A stretch of DNA of 64,000 nt from Rhodospirillales bacterium (GTDB taxonomy: Bacteria; Pseudomonadota; Alphaproteobacteria; Rhodospirillales; 2-12-FULL-67-15), in NCBI GenBank assembly GCA_016872535.1, contig VGZQ01000003.1, positions 9,856 to 73,855 on the forward strand. The letters run 5' to 3'. Both the position numbers and the translations under genes were made by a program. Positions 1 through 63,332 of the stretch are shown here, in pieces. The notes under the pieces are model-generated. The model ran no database searches. It was not told the origin of the DNA and saw nothing but the letters and a program-made list of their open reading frames with translations. How positions within the stretch are numbered: the first letter of the stretch is position 1; the number at the start of each line of letters is the position of its first letter.

Positions 1-301
1 CCGAGAGTCGCTTCACCAGGTTGAACTGCTGGAAGATCATGCCGATGCGCCGGCGCATGTGGCGCAGGTCCCGGCGCCCGCTCGGGGTCGGCGTGCCCTC
101 GAAGCGGATATCGCCGCCGCTCGGCTCGACCAGGCGGTTGATGCAGCGCATCAGCGTGGATTTGCCCGCGCCGGAACGGCCGAGCACAACGATGAATTCC
201 CCGGCGCGCGCGTCGAACGACACGTCGTGAAGCGCGGTGTGCGCCCCATAACGCTTGTTGAGGTTGCGGACCTCGAGAATCGGCGCGGCCGGGGCGGTCA
301 C
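1..301 (-). CDS. phnC: Phosphonate ABC transporter ATP-binding protein (PhnC-type), N-terminal part; gene continues beyond window start
   Basis: Minus-strand frame from GTG at 301..299 reads VTAPAAPILEVRNLNKRYG...GEFIVVLGRSGAGKSTLMRCINRLVEPSGG (Walker A; PhnC-like RCINRL). Absent from ORF track because it is truncated by the window edge. Lies 28 bp downstream of phnD on the same strand. Confidence 0.8.
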   Translation of the reverse strand, partial: MTAPAAPILEVRNLNKRYGAHTALHDVSFDARAGEFIVVLGRSGAGKSTLMRCINRLVEPSGGDIRFEGTPTPSGRRDLRHMRRRIGMIFQQFNLVKRLS

Positions 302-329
302 GATTCCACCCCGGCCGTGGACGTTTCGC

Positions 330-1199
330 TCACTTACCGGCTGCTTTCTTCTGCTGATCCTGGAAGGCGATCAGTTCGCGCACCGTGTCGTAATCCTTGT
401 CGGTCGCCGGATCCATCGCGTTGACGACGCCGAGCTTGCCGAACTGGACGTTGCTGATGGCCAGCAGGCCCTTGCGCAGCTTGTCCTGCAGGTCCTTGGG
501 CAGGTTGGTACGCACGACGAAGGGCGAGCCGGGGATCGGATCGGACTCGAACACGATCCGCACGTCCTCTTTCTTCAATTGGCCGCGGGATATGGCAAGA
601 TCGTAGACCTCGTCGGCGATGCCGGCGGCGTTGACCTTGCCTTCCTTGACCGCGATCAACGAGGCCTGGTGGGTGCCGGAATAATAGAGCGACTTGAAAT
701 CCTTTTCCGGGTTGATGCCGTTCTTGTGCAGCGCGAGCCGGGGCACGAAGTTGCCCGAGGTCGAGGCCGGATCGACCAGCGCGAAGGTCTTGCCCTTGAG
801 GTCGGCGAGCGAACGAATCGGCTGATCGGGATGCGCGATGATCAGCGCGCGGTAAGAGGATTTTCCCGTCTGCGCCATCACCCCGCGCGCGACCGGATCA
901 ACCCCCACCTTGACCTTATCCTTGGCCAGGATGTAGGCGGCCGGACCCAGGAACGCGACTTCGAGCTTGTCGGATTTCAGCGCCTCGACGACCGCGCTGT
1001 AGTCGAGGGCGACGAACGGCTTAACCTTCATGCCGACCGCGGCCTCGAACGCCTTGATGAACGGCTGCGAATCGGCGATCAGCTTGTCCGCGTCCTCGGA
1101 CGGGATCAGGCCGAAACGGATTTCGTTGGTTTGGGCGAACGCGGCCGGAGCGGCGAGCAGGCCGAACGCGGCGGCGGCCAACAGCGTGCGACGTAACAT
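330..1199 (-). CDS. phnD: Phosphonate/phosphite ABC transporter periplasmic substrate-binding protein (PhnD family)
   Basis: 289-aa ORF with signal peptide (MLRRTLLAAAAFGLLAAPAAFAQ). PhnD-family blocks IRFGLIPSED, EVAFLGPAAY, LVDPASTSG. Confidence 0.85.
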   Translation of the reverse strand: MLRRTLLAAAAFGLLAAPAAFAQTNEIRFGLIPSEDADKLIADSQPFIKAFEAAVGMKVKPFVALDYSAVVEALKSDKLEVAFLGPAAYILAKDKVKVGVDPVARGVMAQTGKSSYRALIIAHPDQPIRSLADLKGKTFALVDPASTSGNFVPRLALHKNGINPEKDFKSLYYSGTHQASLIAVKEGKVNAAGIADEVYDLAISRGQLKKEDVRIVFESDPIPGSPFVVRTNLPKDLQDKLRKGLLAISNVQFGKLGVVNAMDPATDKDYDTVRELIAFQDQQKKAAGK

Positions 1200-1255
1200 C
1201 TTTGGGGCCTCCCCTGTCTGGTTTGTCGACGACGTTTATACCGGCCATAGTAGCC

Positions 1256-2449
1256 TCAGGGCGCGCCGGATTTCACCCCTAATTCGCGCAGAGCGTTCCG
1301 CACGGCGGCCAGGGCTCCGCGCATTTCGCGTTGGCCAATGGCGCCAATGCACCCCATGCGGAAGGAATCGGCGACCGTGAGCTTGCCCGGATAGATGACA
1401 TAGCCCTGATCCTTCAGCAGATTGTAGAACCGCTCGAACTTGAAGTTGGGGTCTTTCGGCATGCGGAAGGTGACGATGATCGGCGCCTGCAGCTTATCCG
1501 GCAGCAAGGTGACGAAACCCATCTTGCGCATGCCGTTGACCAGGGTCCGGCAGTTGGCGGAATAACGCGCGTTGCGGCCCTTGACCCCGCCCGCCTTGTC
1601 GAACTGCTCGATCGCCTTGTCGAGGGCGACGATGACGTGAATCGGCGGGGTGAAGCGCCATTGCTTGTTGGCTTCCATCGCCTGCCACTGGTCGTAGAGA
1701 TCGAGGCTGAGCGAATGGGCGTTGCCCTTGGCGGCCTTGAGCGTCTCGGTCCGGACGATGACGAAGCCCATCCCCGGCACGCCTTCCAGGTTCTTGTTGG
1801 AGGACGCCATCACCGCGTCGCACGGCGTCGCCTTGAGGTCGAGCGGAATGGCGCCGAACGCGCTCATGGAATCGAGCAGCAGCGCGCGCCCGCGCGCCTT
1901 CGCGATCCGGGCGACTTCGTCGACGGGGTTGAGCAATCCCGACGTGGTCTCGCAGTGGATCATCAGCACGTGGGTGAGCGACGGATCGGCGGCCAGGCGC
2001 CGGTCGACCTCGGCCGGATCGGGCGGCGTGTCCTCGGCCGTCTCGTAGGCCGCATAGGCGCGGCCCATGTAGTCGAGAATCTTGCACATGCGCTTGCCGT
2101 AGGCGCCGTTGACCAGCACCAGCGCCTTGCCGTTCCTCGGCACCAGGGTTCCGATCGCGGCCTCGACCGCGAAGGTGCCGCTGCCCTGCATCGGCACGGT
2201 GACGTGGGTGTCGCTGGCGTTGACGATGGCGCGCAGCCGGTCGCGCACGCGGGCGTTGATGGCGATGAAGGTGGCGTCGCGCGAGCCCCAATCGCGCAGC
2301 ATGGCTTCCTTGGTCGCGCGGGTGGTGGTGAGCGGGCCCGGCGTCAGCAGAATGGGATCGCGAAATTTGGTTTTGGCGCGGCGGGTTTTTTTCGTGCGAG
2401 TGGGGGACTTGCGCGCGCGAAGCAGCGAGCGGCCGGCGGTGCGGGGCAT
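1256..2449 (-). CDS. phnW: 2-aminoethylphosphonate--pyruvate transaminase (PhnW), class V aminotransferase
   Basis: 397-aa ORF. Carries the LLTPGPLTT N-motif and a class-V fold (SSNKNLEGVPGMGFV around the PLP Lys region). It has an unusual basic extension of about 30 aa (MPRTAGRSLLRARKSPTRTKKTRRAKTKF), and no alternative canonical start lies before the conserved LLTPGP. Confidence 0.85.
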   Translation of the reverse strand: MPRTAGRSLLRARKSPTRTKKTRRAKTKFRDPILLTPGPLTTTRATKEAMLRDWGSRDATFIAINARVRDRLRAIVNASDTHVTVPMQGSGTFAVEAAIGTLVPRNGKALVLVNGAYGKRMCKILDYMGRAYAAYETAEDTPPDPAEVDRRLAADPSLTHVLMIHCETTSGLLNPVDEVARIAKARGRALLLDSMSAFGAIPLDLKATPCDAVMASSNKNLEGVPGMGFVIVRTETLKAAKGNAHSLSLDLYDQWQAMEANKQWRFTPPIHVIVALDKAIEQFDKAGGVKGRNARYSANCRTLVNGMRKMGFVTLLPDKLQAPIIVTFRMPKDPNFKFERFYNLLKDQGYVIYPGKLTVADSFRMGCIGAIGQREMRGALAAVRNALRELGVKSGAP

Positions 2450-2514
2450 GGCGGGTTCCCTGATGGGTGGCGGGACCCCGATTATCGAGGATATTTCCGC
2501 CTGAATCCAGACAT

Positions 2515-2543
2515 CGCCGGGTTCCGTCGAGCGGAACCCGGCG
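2515..2543 (-). terminator. Perfect 12-bp GC-rich stem-loop 24 nt after the cytochrome gene stop; no U-tract
   Basis: CGCCGGGTTCCG-tcgag-CGGAACCCGGCG read directly. It lacks a trailing T/U run on either strand, so it is either a U-less terminator or an mRNA 3-prime stabiliser. Confidence 0.3.
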
Positions 2544-2566
2544 GTCGGATCGAAAGCCCCGCCGGC

Positions 2567-3385
2567 TTACTTTTTCGCCGCGAATTCGCGCAGCGGCTTG
2601 AGCGAAAACAGGAAATCGTCCTTGTCCAACGGTTTATGGCAGGCGTAACACTCGGCCAGGTTGGCGGTGCCGCGCGGCGTTTTGTCGGCGTTGAAAATGC
2701 CGTAGTTCCAGTCGCCGTTCTTGAGCAGGTCCGGGATGTCCTTGCCCCAACCCGCCTGCATTTCCATCACCGTGGTGAAGGAAATCTTATCGGGTTCCAG
2801 ATGGCCGTCCTTGCCGGTCACCGGTTTGCCGGCGGAATCGAGCTTGGGCGTGAAGACATCGAGCACGAAGATCGCTCCGTTGGGCATGGGCTTGCCGTCC
2901 TTCGCCGCCTTGACGGCAACGTCGTTGGCATAGAGATGGCGCACCTGCGGCCGCTCGGGATAGTTGACCGTTTGATAGAGGGTGTACTTCGTGCGGTAAT
3001 CGTCGGGCAGCTTGACCCGGGTGTTGAGCAGAGTCGGGAACATGGACGAGGTGTCGGTGCCCTTGGACGCCCCCTGCAGGCCGGCATAGAAGGCGGCGAC
3101 GTTGGCAATGTCCGCCGGCGTGATCTGGGCGGCGATCGCGTTCATGACCGCGTTCTTGCGCGCGCCCGACTTGAACGCGGTCAGTTGCGAGGCGAGGTAC
3201 GCCTGCTTCTGGCCGGCGAGGTTGGGGATGGCGGCGCTGACGCTGACGCCGTTGGCGCCGTGGCAGGCGGCGCAAACCTGCTCGGCTTTGGCCTTGCCGG
3301 CGGCAAGGTCCGGCGTCGGCGCTTGGGCCAGGGCGAGGGCCGGTGCGAAGGCGGCGGCGCCGAAAACGAACGCGAAACGTTTCAT
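2567..3385 (-). CDS. Periplasmic di-heme protein: class I cytochrome c domain fused to a cytochrome P460-like domain
   Basis: 272-aa ORF with signal peptide MKRFAFVFGAAAFAPALALA. The N-half has CAACHG plus a candidate distal Met (NAVMNAI). The C-half has a second CXXCH (CYACH) near the C-terminus in a context (GDWNYGIFN...ECYACHKPL) that I recognise as P460-family-like. Confidence 0.8.
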   Translation of the reverse strand: MKRFAFVFGAAAFAPALALAQAPTPDLAAGKAKAEQVCAACHGANGVSVSAAIPNLAGQKQAYLASQLTAFKSGARKNAVMNAIAAQITPADIANVAAFYAGLQGASKGTDTSSMFPTLLNTRVKLPDDYRTKYTLYQTVNYPERPQVRHLYANDVAVKAAKDGKPMPNGAIFVLDVFTPKLDSAGKPVTGKDGHLEPDKISFTTVMEMQAGWGKDIPDLLKNGDWNYGIFNADKTPRGTANLAECYACHKPLDKDDFLFSLKPLREFAAKK

Positions 3386-3494
3386 GGCGAGATACCCCCT
3401 CTTGCGAAAGTTGGTCGTGAACCGCCGCGACTATGCCCAACCCGTATCGGGTCGAAAAGATACAGCCGTCGCGTTCACGCAAGAGTGAAGAAAG

Positions 3495-5219
3495 CTACCT
3501 TCGCCGCCACGCCTGGGTGCGAGCCAACACCCCCCGGGTCAGCGCGAAGTGGAGAATGCGCACCGCGGCCGAGGTGTAGACGATCATCATGCCCATGGCC
3601 GCGGCCGAGGCCAGTTCGCCCGCGTCGTCCATGTTGAGCACCGCGACCGAAGCGAGCGCCGTGTGCGGGGCGTAGAGGAACACCACCGCCGACACCGTGG
3701 TCATGGCGTTGACGAACAGATACATGCTGATGTCGAGCGCGGCCGGCGCGCACACCGGCACCGTGACCCGCGCGAAGGTCTTGTAGACCGGCACCTTGAG
3801 CGAGGCCGACACCGCCTCAAACTCGGCGTCCAACTGCTTCAGCGCGGTCACGGCGGTCAGGTGCGCGACGGTGTAGAAATGGACGACCGTGTTGATCACC
3901 AGGATCGCCATGGTGTGATAGAGGCCGCCGAGCGGGTTACTGGGCGCGTTGAAGAAAAAGACATAGGCGAGGCCCAGCACCAATCCCGGCACCGCCATCG
4001 GCATCATGGCGAGGAACTGGAGCGCGAGCCGCGCCGTGCGGAAAGCGCGGCATTTTTCGACCAGGTAGGCGCCGACGAACACGACCGTGGTGCCGATCGC
4101 GGCGGTCCACGCCGCCATGACCAGCGAATTGCGGTACGACGCCCAGCCGCCGCCGTCGCGCAGGTCGAACTGGTAGTGGTAGTTGGTGAGCGTCAGGTTG
4201 TAGGGCCAGAGCTTGATCCAGGACGCGTAGGCCGCGACCGCGAGCACGGTCAGGATCGCGGCCCCGACCAGGGCGCAGAACGCGAAAAACAGGGCGTCGC
4301 GGCCGCGCTTCGGTTTGGCTTCGTACGGCACCGCGCGCGCGGTCAGCGCCGCGCTCTGGCGCCGCTCCGCCAGCCGGTCGGCGAAGAAGGCGAGCACCGC
4401 CGGGCCGAGCAGGATCATGCTCACCACCGCACCCATCTCGAAATCGTGCCGCCCGACCACCTGTTTGTAGACGTCGGTCGCCAGCACGTTGTACTTGCCG
4501 CCGATCACCTTAGGCACGCCGAAATCGGTGATGACCAGGGTGAAGACGACGAAGAACGCGCTGATCAGGCCGTAACGCACGCCGGGAAGCGTGACGGTGA
4601 AGAAGATGCGCGTCTTGCTGGCGCCGAGGGATTCAGCCGCCTCGTAGAGCCGGGCGTCGCTGGTCGATAGCGCGATCAGAAGGATCGTCAGCGCGTGCGG
4701 GAAGACGTAGAACAATTCGCCCAGCACGATGCCGATCGGCCCGTAGATGGTTTCGCCCATGAGCAGGCCCTTGGCGAGCCCCTGGTTGCCGAACAGGTAA
4801 ACGAGCGAAATGGCGGGCAGCAGCGACGGCATCAGGATCGGAATCAGCGCGATCCCCTTGAACACGCTCTTGAACGACATGCAGGTGCGGGTCAGGCCGT
4901 AGGCGAACAGGAAGGCGAGCGGCAGCGCGATCAGGGTGGTGATGAAGGTGACCACCAGGCTGTTGCCGATCGAATAGAACAGCGCCGGGGTCGAAAAATA
5001 AGTCCGGTAATTGGCGAGCCCGACGAATTGGCCGTCGGCGTTCTGGAAGCCCTTGGCGAGGAGGGCGTAGAGCGGCGCGGCGATCCCGATCAGGAGCGCG
5101 CCGACGATCAGCGCGGTCGCGGCGAGAAGGATCTTGTCGTCGGCGGACATGCGCGCCCGGATCGGCCCCCGCACGGGGGCGAGGCCCTCCGGGGAGACCG
5201 CGATGACGGGCCGGCTCAC
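3495..5219 (-). CDS. Fused (duplicated) ABC transporter permease of the Fe(III)/2-aminoethylphosphonate type (PhnU/PhnV-like)
   Basis: 574-aa polytopic ORF with two permease halves (about 12 TM). It lies directly downstream (9 bp) of the ATPase gene in the same operon. Confidence 0.85.
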   Translation of the reverse strand: MSRPVIAVSPEGLAPVRGPIRARMSADDKILLAATALIVGALLIGIAAPLYALLAKGFQNADGQFVGLANYRTYFSTPALFYSIGNSLVVTFITTLIALPLAFLFAYGLTRTCMSFKSVFKGIALIPILMPSLLPAISLVYLFGNQGLAKGLLMGETIYGPIGIVLGELFYVFPHALTILLIALSTSDARLYEAAESLGASKTRIFFTVTLPGVRYGLISAFFVVFTLVITDFGVPKVIGGKYNVLATDVYKQVVGRHDFEMGAVVSMILLGPAVLAFFADRLAERRQSAALTARAVPYEAKPKRGRDALFFAFCALVGAAILTVLAVAAYASWIKLWPYNLTLTNYHYQFDLRDGGGWASYRNSLVMAAWTAAIGTTVVFVGAYLVEKCRAFRTARLALQFLAMMPMAVPGLVLGLAYVFFFNAPSNPLGGLYHTMAILVINTVVHFYTVAHLTAVTALKQLDAEFEAVSASLKVPVYKTFARVTVPVCAPAALDISMYLFVNAMTTVSAVVFLYAPHTALASVAVLNMDDAGELASAAAMGMMIVYTSAAVRILHFALTRGVLARTQAWRRR

Positions 5220-5228
5220 GGCGACGAC

Positions 5229-6341
5229 CTATGATTTGCCGTTGAAGACGAGAATGCGCTCGGGCGGGACGGCGACGAGGAACTGCGCGCCCTCGCGCAC
5301 GCCGAGGTCGCGCACGAGGTTGGTGGAAAAGTCGGCGAGCAGTTCGAATCCGCCGTCGCCTTCGCTCCTAAGCGTCGCCCGCCAGAACGAGCCCAGGAAT
5401 TCGATCGTGGCGACGGAAACCGGAAACGCGTTGGCGTCCGCCGCCGCGATGCCGCGCACCGTCACGTCCTCGGGCCGGACGCAGACGGTCGCGGGTTGGC
5501 CCGCGCGGAGCCCTTCGCCGGCGGCGAATTCGACCGCGCCGACGCGCACGCGCCCGCCTGGGGTCACCGTACCCTTGAGGAAGTTCATCGAGCCGACGAA
5601 ATCGGCGATGAACGGCGTCGCCGGACGGCCGTAGATGTCCTCGGGCGTGCCGACCTGCTCGATCCGGCCCTGGTTCATGACCACGATCCGGTCGGCCATG
5701 GTCAGTGCTTCCTCCTGGTCGTGGGTGACCATGATGGTGGTGACGCCGAGCTTTTCCTGCAGCGCCTTGATTTCGCGGCGGAGATGAACGCGCACCTTGG
5801 CATCCAGCGCGCTCAGCGGTTCGTCGAGGAGCAGCAGGCCGGGCGACGTGGCGAGCGCGCGGGCAAGCGCGACCCGCTGCTGCTGGCCGCCGGAAATCTG
5901 CGAGGGATACTTGTCGGCGTGTTCGGTAAGCCCGACCAGGTCCAGCAATTCGTTCACCCGTCGCGCGGTCTCGGCGCGCGCCGCGCGCCGCGATTCGAGG
6001 CCGTAGGCGACGTTCTTGCGGACCGTCAGGTTGGGAAAGAGAGCGTAGGACTGAAAGACGATGCCGAAATCGCGTTCCGCCGGCGGCAACGCCGAAATAT
6101 CGCGTCCGGCCTGGATGATTTGGCCCCGGGTCTGGATATCGAGCCCGGCGATGGCGCGCAACAGCGTCGTCTTGCCGCACCCCGAGGGCCCGAGGAAACA
6201 GACGAAATCGCCCTCGTGGACGTCGAGCGACACGTCGCTGAGCGCGGCGAACTCGCCGAACATCTTGCTCAGGCCGCGGATCGAGAGATAGGGGGCGCGC
6301 TCCGTTCGCGCTTCCCGTACATTTTCCTCGAGTGCCGTCAT
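5229..6341 (-). CDS. phnT: ABC transporter ATP-binding protein, putative 2-aminoethylphosphonate importer ATPase (PhnT-like)
   Basis: Walker A GPSGCGKTT, signature ISGGQQQRVALARAL, Walker B LLLLDEP, C-terminal TOBE-like domain. I place the start at ATG 6341 (MTALEENV...); the track ORF start at 6380 lies inside the G/C repeat. Confidence 0.85.
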   Translation of the reverse strand: MTALEENVREARTERAPYLSIRGLSKMFGEFAALSDVSLDVHEGDFVCFLGPSGCGKTTLLRAIAGLDIQTRGQIIQAGRDISALPPAERDFGIVFQSYALFPNLTVRKNVAYGLESRRAARAETARRVNELLDLVGLTEHADKYPSQISGGQQQRVALARALATSPGLLLLDEPLSALDAKVRVHLRREIKALQEKLGVTTIMVTHDQEEALTMADRIVVMNQGRIEQVGTPEDIYGRPATPFIADFVGSMNFLKGTVTPGGRVRVGAVEFAAGEGLRAGQPATVCVRPEDVTVRGIAAADANAFPVSVATIEFLGSFWRATLRSEGDGGFELLADFSTNLVRDLGVREGAQFLVAVPPERILVFNGKS

Positions 6342-6367
6342 CGAGAAATCCCAACCCCCCACCCCAA

Positions 6368-6428
6368 CCCTCCCCCGCAAGGGGGGAGGGGACTTTTATA
6401 GTAACCCCCCTCCCCTTGCGGGAGGGGG
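6368..6428. repeat. Pair of 9-bp G/C-homopolymer hairpins (REP-like intergenic element) flanked by G-/C-tract runs
   Basis: H1 at 6368-6390 is CCCTCCCCC-gcaag-GGGGGAGGG. H2 at 6406-6428 is CCCCCTCCC-cttgc-GGGAGGGGG. They are flanked by C-tracts (6350-6376) and G-tracts (6420-6440). The element lies in the 148-bp phnS-phnT spacer. Confidence 0.7.
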
Positions 6429-6489
6429 TAGGGGGAGGGGTCGCTTTCGCCTGGACGAAAACCGACGAGGAGCGGCGATAACGAAACCG

Positions 6490-7530
6490 TCACTTCTTCG
6501 GATCGGATTTGGAGTCGTAACGCTTCTGCCATTCGTTGAGGATGCGGATGCGGTTATCCGCCGCCCAGCCGAAGTCGTTCTTGGCGAACCTGTTCGGGAT
6601 ATCCTGCAGCTCCTTGGTCGGGTTGGGAACGCCGGGCATGGAAACGGCCTCGTAGCCGGGGGCGTAGAGGTCCATGGCCTGGCGGCTGACCGACCAATCG
6701 GCGACCTTGCGGGCGAGGTCGAGCTTCTTGGTATTCTTGACGATGGCGAAGGCTTCGAGTTCCCAGCCGAGTCCCTCGGACGGGAACACGACCTCGAGCG
6801 GCGCGCCCTCGGCCTTGGACTTCACGCCGCGGTAAGCGAAGGAGACGCCGAGCGGCACTTCGCCCGAAGCCGCGAGCCGGCACGGCGCCGAGCCCGAATG
6901 GGTGTAGCGGGCGATGTTCTCGTGCAGCTTGTCCATGTACGCCCAGCCGTCCTTCTCGCCCCACATCTGCAGCCAACTGGAGACGTCGAGGAAGCCGGTG
7001 CCCGACGAATTCGGATTGGGCATGACGACGCTGCCCTTGTAGACCGGCTTGGTCAGGTCCATCCACGACGCCGGTATCGGCAGGTTCTTCTTTTTGGCCT
7101 CGACGGTGTTGACGCAGACGGCCGCCGCGTAGACGCGCTGGCCGATCCACTGCGGCGGGTTGTTCTTGGTGTCGTAGTAGCGCTTGTCGAGCTTGTCGAG
7201 GCCCTTGGGCGCGTAGCCCTGGAAATAACCCTGGTTGGCGAGCAGCACCAGGCTGGTGGCGGCCAAACCGTAGACCATGTCGGCCTTGGGATTGTCTTTC
7301 TCGGCGAGCAGCTTGGAGGTGACGATGCCGGTCGAATCGCGCACCCATTTCACGTCCACGTCGGGCACGGCGTCCTCGATCGCCTTCTTGAACTTGGCGA
7401 GCTCGTCGGCCTCGATCGCGGTGTAGATCAAGAGATCGGTCTTGGCGGCGGCGGGTTGGGCCGCGAAGGCGGCCAGGGCCACGCCGGCGGCCAGGCCCCA
7501 GGCGATTTTGGCGGCGCGTTGAAAGGTCAT
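6490..7530 (-). CDS. phnS: Periplasmic substrate-binding protein, putative 2-aminoethylphosphonate ABC transporter (PhnS-like, Fe(III)-SBP fold)
   Basis: Start placed at ATG 7530, preceded by AAGGAGG (MTFQRAAKIAWGLAAGVALAAFAAQPAAA signal peptide). Conserved blocks LLIYTAIEADE and WVRDSTG. Confidence 0.85.
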   Translation of the reverse strand: MTFQRAAKIAWGLAAGVALAAFAAQPAAAKTDLLIYTAIEADELAKFKKAIEDAVPDVDVKWVRDSTGIVTSKLLAEKDNPKADMVYGLAATSLVLLANQGYFQGYAPKGLDKLDKRYYDTKNNPPQWIGQRVYAAAVCVNTVEAKKKNLPIPASWMDLTKPVYKGSVVMPNPNSSGTGFLDVSSWLQMWGEKDGWAYMDKLHENIARYTHSGSAPCRLAASGEVPLGVSFAYRGVKSKAEGAPLEVVFPSEGLGWELEAFAIVKNTKKLDLARKVADWSVSRQAMDLYAPGYEAVSMPGVPNPTKELQDIPNRFAKNDFGWAADNRIRILNEWQKRYDSKSDPKK

Positions 7531-7747
7531 TGGTCGGATCCTCCTTGTCGATGATGTTGTTGGCGTGTTGCGGCCGTGCGCGGAAAGCCGGGTTTTTTCA
7601 GCACCACATAGTTCCACAATATTCCTCACTTCGCCACTACCCCAGGGGAGTGCCGCGCCCGCCGCCATTCTACCTTGCTATGGTGATGCATAAACGGGGA
7701 AAAAGTGATATTTTCTTGATACTTCCGGGAACGCTAGGATTTTAGCC

Positions 7748-8506
7748 ATGCTCGCGGAACGCCGCCGCGCCCTGATTCTCGACGTCATCGCCCGTCACGG
7801 CTCGGCCAGCGTCGCCGAACTCGCCCGTCGGCTGAAAGTGTCGCGCGAAACCATACGGCGCGATCTGCTGCGCCTCGAGGCCGACAACAAGCTCGCCAAG
7901 ACCCACGGCGGGGCGCTGGCGCTCGGCGCGGTCGAGCCGGCGGTCGCCGACCGCATGAAGGTCAACATCGCGGGCAAGCGCGCGATCGCGCGCGCGGCCG
8001 CCGAAACGGTCGCCGACGGGGCAAGCGTGATTCTCGATTGCGGCACCACCGCGCTCTGCCTCGCCGAAATGCTGGTCGCGCGGCGGCGGCTCACGATCCT
8101 GACCAACGATCTGGAGGTGGCGGGACGGCTCGCCGGGCGCAACGACAACAAGGTGTTTCTCCTCGGCGGCGAGCTGGCCGGCAACCAGAGCGCCACCTTC
8201 GGGCGCGACGCGCCCGCCATGCTCGCCGGCCATCTCGCCGACATGGCCTTCGTCAGCCCGGCGGTGGTGTCGGATCACCCGTGGCTGATGGACTACACGC
8301 GCGAGGCGGCGGCGCTGCACGAAGCCATGATCGCCCAGGCCCGCGCCGTCGTCCTCTTGGTCGACGGCACCAAGTTCGGCCGCACCGCGCCCGCGCGCGT
8401 CGCCGCGTTCGAGCGCGCCCACACCTTGATCACCGATATCGATCCGCCCGCGGCCCGCCTGCGCGCGCTGAAAACGATCGCCGGCAAGGTCGTGGTGGCG
8501 AAATAA
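7748..8506 (+). CDS. DeoR family transcriptional regulator
   Basis: 252-aa ORF. N-terminal HTH (SVAELARRLKVSRETIRRDLLRLE) plus a DeoR C-terminal sugar-phosphate-binding-like domain. Divergent from phnS across a 217-bp AT-richer spacer. Confidence 0.85.
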   Translation: MLAERRRALILDVIARHGSASVAELARRLKVSRETIRRDLLRLEADNKLAKTHGGALALGAVEPAVADRMKVNIAGKRAIARAAAETVADGASVILDCGTTALCLAEMLVARRRLTILTNDLEVAGRLAGRNDNKVFLLGGELAGNQSATFGRDAPAMLAGHLADMAFVSPAVVSDHPWLMDYTREAAALHEAMIAQARAVVLLVDGTKFGRTAPARVAAFERAHTLITDIDPPAARLRALKTIAGKVVVAK

Positions 8507-8524: not shown

Positions 8525-9055
8525 TTACGGCATCTTCGATTGCAACTTTACGATCTTGCCGTCCACGGCGAACACGCCGTCGCCGCGATGATGGAGGATC
8601 TTTGGATTTTTCCGTTTCGGATCGATCCACGCCTTGACCGCTTCGAGCACGAACAGATTGTACTTCTTGACGAAGCCCGTATCGACCACCTTGCACTCGA
8701 TGTTGGCGAAGCATTCGGCGATCAGCGGCGGTTTCACGCGCTTGGCTTGAAGCGGCGTCAGGCCGAACTTCTTGAACTTGTCGATCGTGCGGCCCGAGCA
8801 ATTGCCGACCGCCACCATCTGGCGCGCGAGGTCGCGCGCGGGGATCGCGATCACGCATTCCTTGGTCGCGCGCAGGGCGGCGAAGCTGTGGTTGGCCTCG
8901 CTGACGATACAGGCGATCAGCGGCGGCTCGAATTCCATCGGCGTCAGCCACGACATGGTCATGACGTTGGCGCAGCCCTTGTGCGCGGTCGTCAGCAGGA
9001 CCACCGGACCCGGTTCGAGCAGTTGGTAGACCTTGGCGAGGGGGAGGGCTTTCAT
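8525..9055 (-). CDS. Flavin reductase-like (FMN-binding split-barrel) domain protein
   Basis: 176-aa ORF with GGAGG upstream of the ATG. Flavin_Reduct-like sequence (PVVLLTT...NVMTMSW...ACIV..NHSF..L). Confidence 0.75.
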   Translation of the reverse strand: MKALPLAKVYQLLEPGPVVLLTTAHKGCANVMTMSWLTPMEFEPPLIACIVSEANHSFAALRATKECVIAIPARDLARQMVAVGNCSGRTIDKFKKFGLTPLQAKRVKPPLIAECFANIECKVVDTGFVKKYNLFVLEAVKAWIDPKRKNPKILHHRGDGVFAVDGKIVKLQSKMP

Positions 9056-9132
9056 CGGGAGCCTCCACCGATGCGGATAGAGCTACAATTTTCATATATG
9101 GTTTGAGACGAAGCTGGGCGCTATACGGTATC

Positions 9133-9161
9133 TTGACAATATTCCTATTACCGGCTATATT
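9133..9161 (+). promoter_or_regulatory. Near-consensus sigma70-type promoter TTGACA-N17-TATATT with no obvious downstream gene
   Basis: TTGACA at 9133-9138, exact 17-nt spacer, TATATT at 9156-9161, read directly. It points toward the 3-prime end of the convergent SDR gene (stop at 9371). Confidence 0.35.
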
Positions 9162-9370
9162 TTCCGATAAAATAATCCCGCGTTCTTGGACAGGTGAATA
9201 GGTCTCAGATTTCTGGCGCGCGCCGGATGTCGCGCTTAGGACCGTTTTTCCGCCCGCGCCGCAAAAACGCCTACAAATGTCTACATGAATCGGGCTGTTT
9301 CGAAGGATATCAACGCGTTAAGCCCGATTTACCCGCTGTTAGCTTGGCGCAAGCGAGCGGAATGTGGGTG

Positions 9371-10096
9371 TCAACGTGGCGCGAGCCGCCCAAGTCGAAT
9401 GACCGTTCCGCTCTCCGGCGCGTCCGCCGCGCATATAAGTTCGACGATCGCCTCGGCCGCCGCTTTCGGCTTGGGCAGCCCCGACGGAGCTTCGCCGGGA
9501 AAAGCCTTGGCGCGCAGCGCCGTGCGCGTCGGGCCGGGGTCCACCAGGTGGACGCGCACCTTGGCGTGGGCCACCTCGGCGGCGTAACTGCGCACCATCG
9601 CCTCCAACGCGGCCTTGGCGGCGGCATACGGCCCCCAATAGGCCGCGTGCGCGCCCTCGGGCACCCCGCCGGTGAGAAAAATCGCGCAGGCTGAGGCGGA
9701 CGCGCGCAGCAGCGGATCGAGCGAGCGGATCAGGCGGTAGTTGGCGGTGAGGTCGATTGCGAGGGTGCGCTCGAAATCCTCCGGCTTGACATGGGGGAGC
9801 GGACTGAGCGGGCCGAGTTCGGCCGCGGCGGCGACCAGAAGGTCGAGTTTCTTGTGGCGTTGGAACAGGGCTGCGCCCAGCCGGTCGATGCCGGCGAAAT
9901 CGAGCAAGTCGAGCGGCACCAAGGTTACGGTTTTGCCGAGCGCGCGGATTTCGTCGTCGAGTTCCTCGAGCGCGCCCTGGGTGCGGGCGAGCGCGATCAC
10001 GTGCGCCCCTTCGCGCGCGCAGGCGAGCGCCGTCGCGCGGCCGATCCCGCGCGAGGCCCCGGTGACGAGGGCGATGCGGCCCTCGAGGCGTTTCAT
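9371..10096 (-). CDS. Short-chain dehydrogenase/reductase (SDR) family oxidoreductase
   Basis: 241-aa ORF with TGASRGIG Rossmann motif and YxxxK (YAAAK). Ends the purF operon-like run. Confidence 0.8.
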   Translation of the reverse strand: MKRLEGRIALVTGASRGIGRATALACAREGAHVIALARTQGALEELDDEIRALGKTVTLVPLDLLDFAGIDRLGAALFQRHKKLDLLVAAAAELGPLSPLPHVKPEDFERTLAIDLTANYRLIRSLDPLLRASASACAIFLTGGVPEGAHAAYWGPYAAAKAALEAMVRSYAAEVAHAKVRVHLVDPGPTRTALRAKAFPGEAPSGLPKPKAAAEAIVELICAADAPESGTVIRLGRLAPR

Positions 10097-60953: not shown

Positions 60954-61124
60954 GGGCGATGTTCCTCTTTCCCGGGCTATATAGACGATTCGGCGGTCCC
61001 TATGGTAGCCTCTTTCGGTCGGGCCACGGCAGGCGCCCGGCGACACCAAGACGAATCCCCGCATAAGTTTTCCCGCGAAGGTCGTCCAAGCTCTGCCCTG
61101 CTCGTGCATCGAGGAGGGTAATCC

Positions 61125-61943
61125 ATGTCTGCGTCCAATTCGTCCGCGTCTTCCGCCGCTCCGTCCATCGCCCCCACCGAACTCTGCGCGCTGCTCGACC
61201 GCGGTGGGGCGATTTTCTATGACGTCCGCCGTCGCGTCCGTTACGAAGAAAGCGGCGAAGCGATCCCCGGCGCCCCCTGGCGCGATCCGAGCGAAATCGA
61301 ATCGTGGTCGCGCCATTTGTTGCCCAGTCGCGCGGTGGTGGTGACCTGCGTCCACGGCCACGAGGTGAGCCAGAACGCCGCCGCCGTGCTCAAGGCGCGC
61401 GGGCTCGATGCGCGCTATCTCGCGGGTGGTGTCGAAGGCTGGCGCCAGGCGGGACTGCCGCTCGTTCGCCAGGCGCCGCCGGCCAAGGGTTCCGCCTGGA
61501 TCACCCGCGGGAAACCGAAGATCGATCGCATCGCCTGCCCGTGGCTGGTGAAGCGTTTTTACGATCCTTCCGCGCGCTTTCTTTACGTGCCGGCCGATCG
61601 CGTGCTGGCCGAGGCCGAGGCGAACGGCGCGATCCCCTACGACGTGCCCGGCGTCGAAATGAGCCACGACGGCGAGCTGTGCAGTTTCGACACCATGATC
61701 CGGCGCTTGGGACTGAAGGAACCCGCGCTCACGGACCTAGCCGTGATTGTGCGCGGCGCCGATACGGGGCGCCCCGAGTTGTCGCCAGTGGCGCCGGGGT
61801 TGCTCGCGGTGTCGCTCGGGCTTTCGGCCATGTTTGCCGACGACCAGGAAATGCTCGGTCACGGCATGGTGGTGTATGATGCGCTCTACGCGTGGCTCTT
61901 AAGGGCACGGGGCGAAACCCACGGCTGGCCGTCGAAGGCCTGA
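61125..61943 (+). CDS. chrB: Rhodanese domain fused to ChrB C-terminal (chromate resistance) domain
   Basis: 272-aa ORF after GAGGAGGG. The rhodanese-like N-half has a CVHGHEVS active-site loop. The C-half has IDRIACPWLVKRF...LCSFD, typical of ChrB_C. Confidence 0.8.
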   Translation: MSASNSSASSAAPSIAPTELCALLDRGGAIFYDVRRRVRYEESGEAIPGAPWRDPSEIESWSRHLLPSRAVVVTCVHGHEVSQNAAAVLKARGLDARYLAGGVEGWRQAGLPLVRQAPPAKGSAWITRGKPKIDRIACPWLVKRFYDPSARFLYVPADRVLAEAEANGAIPYDVPGVEMSHDGELCSFDTMIRRLGLKEPALTDLAVIVRGADTGRPELSPVAPGLLAVSLGLSAMFADDQEMLGHGMVVYDALYAWLLRARGETHGWPSKA

Positions 61944-61970: not shown

Positions 61971-63332
61971 ATGACGCAGGCGGTAAAACCCGACGCGGTG
62001 CCGATGGCCGACGCGCTCAAGGTCTGGGTCCGGGTTGCGGCTTTGAGCTTCGGCGGGCCGGTGGCGCAGATCGCGGTCATGCACCGCATCGTGGTCGAGG
62101 AAAAACGCTGGATCGGCGAGGAGCGATTCCTGCACGCGCTCAACTACTGCATGCTGCTGCCGGGGCCGGAAGCGACCCAGATGGCAGTCTATCTCGGCTG
62201 GCTGCTCAACAAGGCGTGGGGCGGCTTCCTCGCCGGCTTCCTGTTCGTGCTGCCCGGCGTTGTCGTGATGATGGTCTTGAGCGTGATTTACTCCGGCTAC
62301 GGCGAAATGCCGGTGGTGGCGGCGGTGTTCTACGGCATCAAGGCCGCGGTGCTCGCGATCGTGATCGAGGCGATGGTGCGCATCGGCAAGCGCGCGCTCA
62401 AGACCGAGGCGCAATACGCCATCGCCGCGCTCGCCTTCGTCGCCATCTTCTTCCTCGATGCGCCGTTCCCGCTGATCATCGTCGCCGCCGGCGTCGCCGG
62501 ATACCTGGGCTCGCGCGCATGGCCGGCACAGTTTTCGCCGGGCGCCGGCCACGGTAAGAAAGCCAACATGCCGCCCCCGGTGATCGCCGAGGAGAGCTTG
62601 CACGAAGTCGCGCCGAGCACGCGCCGGACTCTCTGGATTTCGCTTCTGTTCGCCGTGGTCTGGCTCGGGCCGGTGGTCGCAGTCATGGCCTGGCTCGGGT
62701 TCGCCGACGTCTTTTCACAGATCGGATTCTTCTTCAGCAAGCTTGCGGTGGTGACCTTCGGCGGCGCCTACGCGGTGCTCGCCTATATGGCGCAGCAGGC
62801 GGTCGAGACCTACGGCTGGGTCACGGCGGGCGAGATGCTGGACGGGCTCGGCTTGGCCGAAACCACGCCGGGGCCGCTGATCATGGTGACGCAGTTCATC
62901 GGCTTTCTTGCCGCCTTCCGCGATCCGGGCGGCTTGACGCCAATCACGGCAGGGGTGCTGGGTGGCCTGATGGCGACCTGGGCGACGTTCGGGCCGTCGT
63001 TTTTCCTGATCTTTCTCGGCGCGCCGTACATCGAGGCGCTGCGCCAAAATAAGGCGCTCTCGGCCGCGCTCGCCGCCATCACCGCGGCGGTGGTGGGCGT
63101 GGTGCTCAACCTCGCCGTCTGGTTCGCGGTCCACGTCATGTTCGCCGACGTGCGCGAAGTGGCCCTCGGCCCGTTCAAGGCGCCGTGGCCCGCATGGGCG
63201 AGCCTGGATCCCATGACCGCGATTCTCTCGCTCGCCGCGCTCGTCGCCATGCTCCGCTTCAAGATCGGCATGCTGACGACGCTGGCGGCGGCCGCCTTGA
63301 TCGGGGTGGTGTGGAAACTGGGGTCGTTGTAG
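61971..63332 (+). CDS. chrA: Chromate ion transporter ChrA (CHR family, two-domain)
   Basis: 453-aa polytopic ORF. FGGPVAQIAVMH and TPGPL motifs repeated in both halves. Confidence 0.9.
   Translation: MTQAVKPDAVPMADALKVWVRVAALSFGGPVAQIAVMHRIVVEEKRWIGEERFLHALNYCMLLPGPEATQMAVYLGWLLNKAWGGFLAGFLFVLPGVVVMMVLSVIYSGYGEMPVVAAVFYGIKAAVLAIVIEAMVRIGKRALKTEAQYAIAALAFVAIFFLDAPFPLIIVAAGVAGYLGSRAWPAQFSPGAGHGKKANMPPPVIAEESLHEVAPSTRRTLWISLLFAVVWLGPVVAVMAWLGFADVFSQIGFFFSKLAVVTFGGAYAVLAYMAQQAVETYGWVTAGEMLDGLGLAETTPGPLIMVTQFIGFLAAFRDPGGLTPITAGVLGGLMATWATFGPSFFLIFLGAPYIEALRQNKALSAALAAITAAVVGVVLNLAVWFAVHVMFADVREVALGPFKAPWPAWASLDPMTAILSLAALVAMLRFKIGMLTTLAAAALIGVVWKLGSL

Follow-up and report, generated by a model that had tools for sequence, protein, structure and literature searches.

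In the stretch of Rhodospirillales DNA analysed here (64,000 nucleotides, hereafter the window), a gene for a secreted 272-aa protein with two CXXCH sites lies between genes for phosphonate uptake and breakdown, which raises the question of whether the encoded cytochrome belongs to phosphonate metabolism or is only its neighbour. The original prediction described a class-I cytochrome c half and a P460-like half, embedded in a phosphonate operon, and left two options, either an unrelated gene that had come to lie between the phosphonate genes with structured spacers of its own, or a hidden redox step in the periplasm. The features discussed below are listed in Table 1. We consider it likely that the gene encodes an exported di-haem c::c'-beta cytochrome, that it is self-contained and that it is a neighbour, not a component, of phosphonate catabolism.

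Table 1. Positions in the window of the cytochrome gene, its domains and motifs, the flanking phosphonate genes and the spacer elements
Feature	Position (nt)	Strand	Basis or remark
Cytochrome CDS	2567-3385	minus	272 aa; exported di-haem protein, class-I cytochrome c and cytochrome c'-beta (P460-superfamily) domains
Predicted Sec signal peptide, residues 1-20	3326-3385	minus	MKRFAFVFGAAAFAPALALA, cleavage after ALA; by inspection
Class-I cytochrome c domain, residues ~26-104	3074-3310	minus	phmmer vs PDB, Foldseek
Cytochrome c'-beta domain, residues ~123-268	2582-3019	minus	Pfam PF16694, 7s5o match, Foldseek
CAACH, residues 38-42	3260-3274		direct reading
Putative axial Met81 of class-I domain	3143-3145
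Leu175 codon	2861-2863
CYACH, residues 246-250	2636-2650		direct reading
Upstream unit phnS2-phnT2-phnU2, AEP-type ABC transporter	3495-7668	minus	NCBIfam, JGI gene calls
phnS2	6490-7668	minus	upstream unit; as listed, probable start 7530
phnT2	5229-6380	minus	upstream unit
phnU2	3495-5219	minus	TIGR03262, 800 bits
Downstream unit phnW-phnD-phnC	1-2449	minus	NCBIfam, translation, relatives
phnW	1256-2449	minus	542 bits
phnD	330-1199	minus	downstream unit
phnC, first 100 codons	2-301	minus	translation; with Walker A motif, runs off the window edge
Perfect dyad TTCAC-N6-GTGAA, candidate operator/activator site	3474-3489	minus	conserved in clade
Promoter-like element of cytochrome gene	3430-3459	minus	CTTTTC (3454-3459), N18, CATAGT (3430-3435); conservation
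Perfect hairpin, 12-bp stem, 5-nt loop	2515-2543	minus	one copy in window
Promoter-like element of phnW	2481-2509	minus	TGGATT (2504-2509), N17, GATAAT (2481-2486); conservation

Two fused haem domains

Direct reading of the sequence confirmed the predicted ORF and both of its CXXCH sites, and the N-terminus, in which MKRFAFVFGAAAFAPALALA is followed by QAP, has the appearance of a Sec signal peptide. A Pfam scan matched Cytochrom_C over residues 28-99 (E 3e-10) and Cytochrome_P460 (PF16694) over residues 127-261 (E 3.6e-24; 86 bits for a cutoff of 27), the latter along the full 125-position profile, so that the HMM search proposed earlier did return a significant P460-family hit. The AF2 model has a pLDDT of 86.4 and a pTM of 0.73, with pLDDT values below 50 at residues 1-16. 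The same protein occurs, identical, on eight independent metagenome contigs. Comparison with the orthologues of its clade (see below) gave dN/dS values of 0.13-0.34, which rule out a decaying or pseudogenised passenger and because of which the gene is, to judge from its substitution pattern, functional.

The N-terminal half has the CXXCH, the downstream Met and the all-alpha fold of class-I cytochromes c of the c4/c552 type. A phmmer search of the PDB matched it to cytochrome c4/c552 (E 1e-25 to 1e-21), and Foldseek aligned it to 4o1w with a target-normalised TM-score of 0.94 and 54% identity. Monohaem c552/c554 and the half-domains of cytochrome c4 (4o1w, 1cno, 2zzs, 6q2u, 8uf3) are 40-55% identical to residues 26-104 and share the CXXCH and the downstream Met with them, target-normalised TM-scores being 0.86-0.95 for the single-domain c552/c554 chains. 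Residues C38, C41, H42 and M81 do not vary among 57 homologues, and in the alignment Met81 falls on the Met that is conserved in c4 domains. Haem 1 would be held by Cys38, Cys41 and His42, with Met81 as its probable sixth ligand, and the domain would serve as an electron relay. Whereas c552/c554 are free carriers and c4 is a tandem, here the class-I domain forms the N-terminal module of a fusion.

A cytochrome c'-beta haem pocket

The best match of residues 123-268, in sequence as in structure, is the N. europaea cytochrome c'-beta (NeCP-beta, a c'-beta-Met; 7s5o), with E 1e-23 and ca. 30% identity in an alignment ungapped over 100 residues, and with E 2e-13 and a target-normalised TM-score of 0.76-0.79 in Foldseek. 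Both have a C-terminal CXXCH and a C-terminal helix. Further Foldseek matches were 6hiu, 9hrk and 2je2; among these, the cytochromes P460 of N. europaea (2je2) and M. capsulatus (6hiu) have PF16694 and the beta-sheet fold in common with the C-terminal half, but their sequence similarity to it is weak (E 1e-4 to 0.1).

Cytochromes P460 sensu stricto oxidise NH2OH and show a Soret band at 460 nm, and the haem of c'-beta proteins is five-coordinate, high-spin and able to bind NO/CO. By definition, a c'-beta protein combines the P460-superfamily fold with a canonical c-haem that is not cross-linked to a Lys (PMC11928373). In cytochromes P460, the cross-link is made by Lys70 (NeP460) or Lys78 (McP460) and a distal carboxylate (Glu96/Asp102) is required for NH2OH oxidation, at which every characterised protein devoid of the cross-link fails (PMC11928373, Table 2). 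The haem-pocket positions were mapped from the same table, and the column in which Leu175 falls is exactly where the wild-type and F61V chains of McCP-beta diverge. At the cross-link position, neither NeCP-beta nor the C-terminal half has a Lys: Leu175 aligns there to Met79 of NeCP-beta and Phe61 of McCP-beta, and the column holds L (27), V (12), M (8), I (6) or A (4) in 57 homologues, never K. The distal carboxylate is likewise missing from both, with Ala109 in NeCP-beta and Thr205 here (T, A, S or V among homologues). On these residues, the second half is a cytochrome c'-beta and not a true P460; having neither the Lys cross-link nor the distal Glu/Asp, it should carry no P460 cofactor, and with Leu175 and Thr205 in their place hydroxylamine or P460 chemistry is therefore not expected. 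The label "P460-like" thus fits the Pfam family and the fold, but the cross-link Lys, by which P460 is defined, is missing; the earlier premise that tied the domain to hydroxylamine chemistry fails because this Lys and the distal carboxylate are both absent.

A genuine cytochrome P460, turning hydroxylamine into NO or N2O and handing the electrons to the c-domain, would agree with the Pfam match and with the fold shared with McP460 and NeP460, and a fused electron acceptor would fit an oxidase. Such an enzyme is extremely improbable here given the pocket described above, in which the homologues never have the Lys and Thr205 replaces the carboxylate, as well as a nearest structure that is a c'-beta and not a P460; in addition, no nitrification genes were seen among the window ORFs scanned.

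Haem 2 would be attached through Cys246, Cys249 and His250 in the beta-sheet c'-beta domain, and its open distal site would bind NO, H2O2 or similar small ligands, while the fused relay domain would shuttle electrons to or from periplasmic carriers. With H2O2, NeCP-beta yields a ferryl species and shows peroxidase-like activity, and hydrophobic c'-beta proteins bind NO (PMC11928373). We infer that the cytochrome probably handles NO or peroxide with a built-in electron relay, in which case it would be a peroxidase-like or NO-detoxifying enzyme, not a passive gas binder. Peroxidase chemistry is the uncertain part, because at the cap position Tyr142 (Y in 23, R in 18 and F in 16 of 57 homologues) aligns to Arg46 of NeCP-beta, the residue credited with the peroxidase-like activity of that protein. 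The Phe32 that caps the haem in McCP-beta falls in a six-residue insertion not present in the cytochrome.

Passive binding or sensing of NO/CO, as proposed for single-domain c'-beta proteins, would involve no turnover and leave to the c-domain only the tuning or reporting of redox state. The hydrophobic Leu175 and the aromatic Tyr142 aligned to the cap position do resemble the gas-binding pocket of McCP-beta (PMC11928373). However, a fused His/Met electron-transfer domain that is invariant in the family is hard to account for in this way, and NeCP-beta, to which the protein is most similar, is peroxidase-like, so that we regard a passive role as unlikely. In the favoured role of an NO- or peroxide-handling enzyme, the protein would have a functional analogue, though not a relative, in CcpA/MauG, which are periplasmic and have two c-type haems, a His/Met electron-transfer haem and a ligand-binding one. 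Membership in these di-haem cytochrome c peroxidases was ruled out, as the Pfam scan of the cytochrome gave no PF03150 (CCP_MauG) match and the fold and family are unrelated.

Position between two phosphonate units

Profile matches bear out the predicted arrangement, in which the cytochrome gene is separated by 109 bp from the AEP permease gene phnU2 and by 117 bp from phnW, with phnD and phnC following phnW and all genes on the same strand. The phnS2-phnT2-phnU2 calls correspond to NCBIfam TIGR03261, TIGR03265 and TIGR03262, all over cutoffs, and full phnC and phnE are present at the related loci L012 and L018. To call the gene embedded in an operon is to interpret what was observed. Motif searches and tblastn of the window detected no PhnX, PhnA or PhnY, and a nearby aldehyde dehydrogenase was rejected as PhnY (222 bits for a cutoff of 636). 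Because the cluster is devoid of phnX, phnA-phnY and phn_lysR, the phosphonate pathway here is not the canonical one.

The canonical AEP loci, located on plasmid AZO_p2 of Azospirillum lipoferum 4B and on a plasmid of Ruegeria sp. AD91A, resemble the window in that phnS2-phnT2-phnU2 are followed, after a break, by phnW on the same strand. What occupies this break is a divergent phn_lysR in the canonical loci, which have no cytochrome there, and the cytochrome gene in the window; downstream of phnW come phnX or phnA-phnY in the former and phnDCE in the latter. Since the canonical loci carry a LysR at this point, the phnU2/phnW junction is probably a seam between two transcription units, and in one freshwater Rhodospirillales clade the fusion sits there, between phnS2T2U2 and phnW-phnDCE. 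Unlike the canonical loci, relatives in the clade also carry a GcvA-type LysR and a small ORF in the break. This LysR was ruled out as an ancestral phn_lysR, for it scores 378-389 bits as GcvA-type and 85-90 bits on the phn_lysR profile, on which the Azospirillum and Ruegeria regulators reach 331 and 293 bits. The small ORF (orf83/orf94) gave no Pfam match and was ruled out as DUF1127.

Across relatives, PhnW occurs 3' of the cytochrome gene in one clade only (at least 73% identity, dS 0.5-0.9), where the adjacency is kept in all seven lineages under three upstream contexts, namely phnU2, the GcvA-type LysR with the small ORF, and MatE. Outside the clade, 96 other loci were available; none of the 44 with at least 1.5 kb of downstream sequence has PhnW or PhnD downstream, and none of the 49 with at least 2 kb upstream has PhnU2 upstream. 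No neighbour family recurs across 62 loci, and the five Pfam-annotated contexts of the fusion gene are all different. Adjacency to phosphonate genes, which the original prediction proposed to check in other genomes, thus extends to seven lineages of a single clade and to none of the 44 other loci.

The dyad upstream of the cytochrome gene starts 104 nt ahead of the ATG, 5 nt beyond the stop codon of phnU2. It is found at -102/-104 in all clade loci, whatever gene is upstream, and L030 and L032, two non-phn loci with 68% identity, have a similar dyad at -95. The dyad is present once in the 64-kb window, and neither this dyad nor the CCGATAATCGG palindrome is common to the other phn promoters of the window beyond chance. 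Both hexamers of the promoter-like element and their 18-nt spacing are kept in seven clade lineages while the spacer letters vary; a generic sigma-70 scan did not flag this element. Dyad and CTTxxC-N18-CATAxT are together retained below phnU2, the orf83/LysR pair or MatE, and also in a non-phn relative.

On the other side, the perfect 12-bp hairpin that had been noted before was recovered 24 nt past the cytochrome stop; it has no T-run and the cytochrome-phnW spacer folds at -64.4 kcal/mol (z -4.7). Being single copy in 64 kb, it is not a REP-type repeat, and it probably acts as a weak terminator or stabilises the mRNA at its 3' end. Orthologous loci have, at the same position, non-homologous GC hairpins and then T-runs, a predicted terminator with T-run being found in five loci. 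The phnW hexamers and their 17-nt spacing are kept in six clade loci, again with varying spacer letters, and in L029 TTGGAA-N18-GATAAT before phnW was flagged by the promoter scan. These elements suggest that the cytochrome gene has its own promoter, dyad and terminator and that phnW has a separate promoter. The varied neighbourhoods, the LysR at the canonical junction and these cis elements support the first of the two original options, an unrelated gene between phosphonate genes.

A co-option of the cytochrome for phosphorus acquisition in this clade, in which it would be co-expressed with phnW-phnDCE and perform or assist a redox reaction of a reduced-phosphorus or aminophosphonate substrate in the periplasm, would draw on the cytochrome-phnW adjacency kept in seven lineages under three upstream contexts, on the absence of phnX, phnA or phnY nearby and on the window hairpin, which has no T-run so that read-through into phnW may occur. 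Against this, the clade is so little diverged (dS 0.5-0.9) that common synteny is expected from descent alone, and the adjacency is missing from the 44 informative loci outside it. Relatives have predicted terminators and a separate phnW promoter-like element between the two genes, and the phn region contains no second copy of the cytochrome dyad. Furthermore, no cytochrome is present in the canonical AEP loci or in a published survey of AEP-cluster accessory genes, literature searches in a limited library found none in AEP clusters, and the chemistry of PhnW is cytoplasmic. Taken together, co-option appears quite improbable. In its fuller form, the fusion would be expressed with phnW-phnDCE under phosphorus limitation and carry out oxidoreduction of reduced-P compounds or aminophosphonates in the periplasm, with electrons passing to the respiratory chain; this is very doubtful, and if true would be a previously undescribed link of c-type cytochromes to phosphonate or phosphite use. 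The second original option, the hidden periplasmic redox step, has no positive evidence and is disfavoured: as the gene appears self-contained and lies between phn units in only one lineage, nothing ties the cytochrome to phosphonate breakdown.

The fusion family and its significance

The search for relatives returned 2643 homologues; of the 120 best, almost every one combines the two domains in this way. At E <= 1e-30, 174 representatives (50% identity) were obtained, and full-length fusions account for at least 34 of the best 150. A single-sequence search of genome contigs gave 11 loci, the alignment-based metagenome search being far more informative. The plasmid collection held no full-length fusion, and among solved structures Foldseek found no chain spanning both halves. 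The characterised c'-beta members are all single-domain proteins of ca. 135-170 aa, NeCP-beta included, whereas the cytochrome described here has 272 aa and adds the N-terminal class-I cytochrome c domain. Literature searches in a limited library found no characterised member of the fused family, and c::c'-beta fusions are mentioned neither there nor in a 2025 review of the P460/c'-beta superfamily. The homologues form a large proteobacterial family of stand-alone fusion genes without conserved neighbours. That this whole family consists of periplasmic di-haem enzymes of an uncharacterised class, with a built-in electron relay and a part in peroxidase chemistry or NO turnover, is more likely than the reading as a phosphonate redox step.

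For phosphonate biology these data are a negative result, and the cytochrome should not be annotated in AEP catabolism. PF16694 matches are sometimes tallied as P460/N2O-related genes; members such as this one should not be so counted in metagenome surveys, since the cross-link Lys is missing. For haem-protein biochemistry, the interest lies in a large and highly conserved family in which a c'-beta domain is fused to a dedicated electron-transfer cytochrome c. The built-in redox partner argues for catalytic turnover over passive gas binding in c'-beta proteins, and the fusion offers a convenient single-polypeptide system in which such turnover may be tested.

Two haem domains in one secreted-type protein

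The cytochrome had been predicted as a secreted-type ORF of 272 aa with two CXXCH sites, and both can be read from the DNA, CAACH at residues 38-42 (nt 3260-3274) and CYACH at residues 246-250 (nt 2636-2650). The proposed HMM search against Pfam matched both expected domains, Cytochrom_C over residues 28-99 (E 3e-10) and Cytochrome_P460 over residues 127-261, with all 125 profile positions covered (E 3.6e-24, 86 bits for a cutoff of 27). By inspection, the N-terminus MKRFAFVFGAAAFAPALALA/QAP (cut at the slash) resembles a Sec signal peptide. The AF2 model, built with 57 homologues as input, is confident (pLDDT 86.4, pTM 0.73), with low confidence across the putative signal peptide (residues 1-16), and Foldseek found no solved chain spanning both halves. 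The N-terminal half resembles cytochrome c4 half-domains and monohaem c552/c554 proteins (E 1e-25 to 1e-17, PDB sequence search; target-normalised TM-score 0.94 and 54% identity with 4o1w, Foldseek). Cys38, Cys41, His42, Met81, Cys246, Cys249 and His250 are invariant in 57 family members. Eight contigs, drawn from several samples, encode the identical protein; it is entered at NCBI as 'MAG: c-type cytochrome [Rhodospirillales bacterium]', and its gene is under purifying selection.

The best PDB match of the C-terminal half is 7s5o, the cytochrome c'-beta of Nitrosomonas europaea (NeCP-beta), with E 1e-23 over more than 100 ungapped residues (Foldseek E 2e-13, target-normalised TM-score 0.76-0.79), while matches to true P460 proteins are far weaker. 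By the definition in the 2025 review of the superfamily, cytochrome P460 has a haem-Lys cross-link and c'-beta lacks it (PMC11928373). In the P460 proteins of N. europaea and M. capsulatus and the c'-beta proteins of the same species, respectively, the cross-link position is occupied by Lys70, Lys78, Met79 and Phe61, the distal carboxylate position by Glu96, Asp102, Ala109 and Gly82, and the cap position by Phe41, Arg50, Arg46 and Phe32 (PMC11928373 Table 2). Wild-type and F61V chains of the M. capsulatus c'-beta differ exactly at the column of Leu175, which independently supports the cross-link mapping. Among the 57 family members this position is L/V/M/I/A and never Lys, and the carboxylate position is T/A/S/V. 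The half originally termed P460-like thus does carry a P460-superfamily Pfam domain with its CYACH, but a true cytochrome P460 was rejected, with Leu175 and Thr205 in place of the two defining features. Because its best match is 7s5o and it has neither the cross-link Lys nor the distal carboxylate, this half is, judged by its sequence, a cytochrome c'-beta, which places the protein among the c'-beta members of the P460/c'-beta superfamily. Since NH2OH oxidation is absent from every characterised protein without these features (PMC11928373 Table 2), the hydroxylamine chemistry that had been associated with it would not be expected.

Characterised c'-beta proteins have no fused class-I domain, whereas this one does. 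A word-indexed search returned 2643 homologues; of the 120 best, almost all share the two domains and have a length of 260-300 aa. They stem from soil and freshwater Alpha- and Betaproteobacteria and carry the names 'cytochrome c553' or 'cytochrome P460 family protein'. When 1.84 billion representatives at 50% identity were searched exhaustively, 174 matched at E <= 1e-30, and the best 150 include at least 34 full-length single-stretch fusions. The c + c'-beta fusion is common and conserved; no description of it was found in the literature, and the superfamily review covers single-domain proteins only (PMC11928373). The representative search also returned longer variants of 330-470 aa in which a c'-beta domain is joined to extra cytochrome c domains (P0126, P0153, P0151, P0213, P0235), and many proteins of ca. 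570 aa with six separate stretches matching the cytochrome c domain.

Features of the cytochrome locus and of related loci (window coordinates unless a locus is named)
Feature	Position	Strand	Remarks
phnC	2-301	minus	first 100 codons only
phnD	330-1199	minus	250 bits, just below equivalog cutoff, over subfamily cutoff
phnW	1256-2449	minus	NCBIfam above cutoff
phnW promoter-like element	2509-2481		TGGATT-N17-GATAAT, ca. 45 nt before phnW ATG
Hairpin	2515-2543		perfect 12-bp stem, unique in window
Cytochrome	2567-3385	minus	ORF, 272 aa
Cross-link position	Leu175		aligned to Met79 of 7s5o, ungapped
Distal carboxylate position	Thr205		aligned to Ala109 of 7s5o, ungapped
Cap position	Tyr142		aligned to Arg46 of 7s5o, ungapped; less secure
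Promoter-like hexamers	3459-3430		CTT(C/G/T)(C/T)C, variable 18-nt spacer, CATA(A/G/C)T; all seven clade lineages
Dyad	3474-3489		TTCAC-N6-GTGAA, perfect, ca. 104 nt before cytochrome ATG; all seven clade lineages
phnU2	3495-5219	minus	NCBIfam above cutoff
phnT2	5229-6380	minus	NCBIfam above cutoff
phnS2	6490-7668	minus	NCBIfam above cutoff
Junction, L018 and L113	LysR/small-ORF relatives 8599-9893 (L018), 3954-5315 (L113)		phnU2, opposite-strand GcvA-type LysR (378-389 bits), conserved small ORF, cytochrome, phnW
Junction, L001	7914-8258 (L001)		phnU2, LysR remnant only, cytochrome, phnW
Junction, window, L029 and L022			phnU2, cytochrome, phnW
Junction, L115 and L116			MatE, cytochrome, phnW, phnD

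The phnU2/phnW junction

NCBIfam matches and ORF coordinates agree with the predicted gene order, the cytochrome lying between the permease gene of the AEP (2-aminoethylphosphonate) transporter and phnW, followed by phnD and phnC on one strand, with spacers of 109 and 117 bp. To assess the conservation of this neighbourhood, 116 loci were gathered and queried with the window's Phn proteins. In every lineage with a cytochrome at least 73% identical (the clade: the window, also fetched as L012, L029, L018, L001, L115, L022 and L113) and with sufficient flank, phnW follows the cytochrome. Among the 96 other loci (at most 69% identical) PhnW or PhnD is found downstream in 0 of the 44 with at least 1.5 kb of downstream sequence, and PhnU2 upstream in 0 of the 49 whose upstream sequence extends over at least 2 kb. 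No neighbour family recurs among 62 loci, and five Pfam-annotated contexts are each different. Since dS between clade members is only 0.47-0.87, shared synteny is expected from common descent. In one relative 63-65% identical (L026 6643-8816), the first 4 bp of the cytochrome gene coincide with the end of a gene for a class-V PLP enzyme, with TauD-like and AP-endonuclease-2 genes further upstream; the best NCBIfam match of this enzyme is periplasmic PvdN, far below threshold, and the overlap is probably a coincidence because the enzyme is not PhnW.

The annotated loci of Azospirillum lipoferum 4B, also of the Rhodospirillales, and of Ruegeria sp. AD91A consist of phnS2-T2-U2, an opposite-strand LysR gene and then phnW-phnX or phnW-phnA-phnY; this LysR best matches TIGR03339 phn_lysR (331 and 293 bits, respectively). 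Such a gene order indicates that the transporter genes and phnW are normally separate units. The gap between phnU2 and phnW is also variable within the clade, and neither the GcvA-type LysR nor the small ORF remains in the window lineage. The latter is Arg-rich (83-94 aa, 83% identical between L018 and L113) and has no Pfam match. In one clade member (L115 534-2935, L116) a MatE efflux gene, and not phnU2, stands upstream of cytochrome-phnW-phnD, so it is the phnW side with which the cytochrome travels. The junction is best read as a seam between units and not as the interior of an operon. The phosphonate link of the cytochrome would then be a matter of where, in this one lineage, the gene has been placed.

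Other features of the cluster were recorded. Downstream of phnW, phnD-phnC-phnE in place of phnX or phnA-phnY is non-canonical (window 1-7668; beyond the edge from L012, L018 and L022). The 64-kb window has no homologue of PhnX, PhnA, PhnY or phn_lysR, a nearby aldehyde dehydrogenase being rejected as PhnY (222 bits for a cutoff of 636). Before its family-model match, PhnW has an Arg/Lys-rich extension of ca. 30 aa (MPRTAGRSLLRARKSPTRTKKTRRAKTKF..., 2360-2449, minus strand) whose ATG and basic character are kept in clade orthologues and most of which is apparently missing from the 372-aa Azospirillum PhnW. Just after the binding-protein gene, the phnS2-phnT2 spacer (6363-6450) contains two tandem G/C-rich hairpins, CCCTCCC-GCAA-GGGGAGGG and CCCTCCCCC-CTTGC-GGGGGAGGG, which may be intercistronic mRNA stabilisers and have no further copy in the window. 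The start of phnS2 is most likely at 7530 and not 7668, giving 346 aa behind an AAGGAGG ribosome-binding site; the region 7531-7747, up to a divergent DeoR-family regulator (7748-8506, plus strand), is AT-rich with two ATCAC repeats ca. 22 nt apart. Elsewhere the window carries ordinary chromosomal genes (radA, purF, dnaB, rplI, fabG/fabF, ksgA, lptF/G, purM, aspS), with an Rfam chrB-b cis-regulatory RNA at 61019-61096 (plus strand, 45.9 bits, over the gathering score) followed by a 272-aa ORF (61125-61943, plus) and a chromate transporter gene (61971-63332, plus; Pfam Chromate_transp).

Candidate regulatory elements

Cis elements were inferred from sequence with comparative support. The dyad, the hexamers and a GGGAGG-type ribosome-binding site are kept before the cytochrome in all seven clade lineages whatever gene stands upstream, the centre of the dyad lying ca. 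58-62 nt before the predicted start of transcription. A similar dyad occurs at -95 in L030 and L032, 68%-identical loci without phn linkage, and in L111, which is one contig with L032, the cytochrome is flanked by opposite-strand genes and CATAAT is retained; the dyad is thus conserved with the cytochrome even outside the phn context. No second copy was found in the 64-kb window, nor a match to a known regulator's site. The predicted 12-bp hairpin is indeed perfect, and the window has a single copy of it. It has no T-run; in L029, L018, L022, L113 and L115 the cytochrome is followed by a GC-rich hairpin with a T-run, different in each (flagged by scan in L022, found by folding in the others). 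The phnW element has a counterpart in L029, TTGGAA-N18-GATAAT, flagged by scan; its spacing is fixed and its spacer sequence variable. The simplest reading would be three units, phnS2T2U2, the cytochrome alone and phnW-phnDCE, with possible read-through from the cytochrome into phnW in the window's own lineage. The suggestion of an unrelated gene with its own structured spacers is in this respect supported by the dyad, the hexamers, the T-run hairpins of the relatives and the separate phnW promoter-like element.

Proposed function of the fusion

The protein would be exported via Sec and both haems attached in the periplasm, the first as a low-spin His/Met electron relay and the second as a five-coordinate haem binding small ligands. 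Its sequence combines a c4/c552-type domain, in which a Met is invariant, and a c'-beta domain without cross-link Lys or distal carboxylate. NeCP-beta, the closest solved homologue of the C-terminal half, reacts with H2O2 to give a ferryl species and shows peroxidase-like activity, and hydrophobic c'-beta proteins bind NO (PMC11928373). Permanent fusion of a relay domain suggests turnover, either peroxide reduction or NO processing; di-haem cytochrome c peroxidases offer a loose functional parallel, with unrelated folds. The peroxidase reading is uncertain because Tyr142 replaces the Arg46 cap. Catalytic detoxification is put forward tentatively, and a role as binder or sensor seems unlikely. 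The significance of these data lies in an uncharacterised fusion family and in the caution that PF16694 matches are not to be counted as P460.
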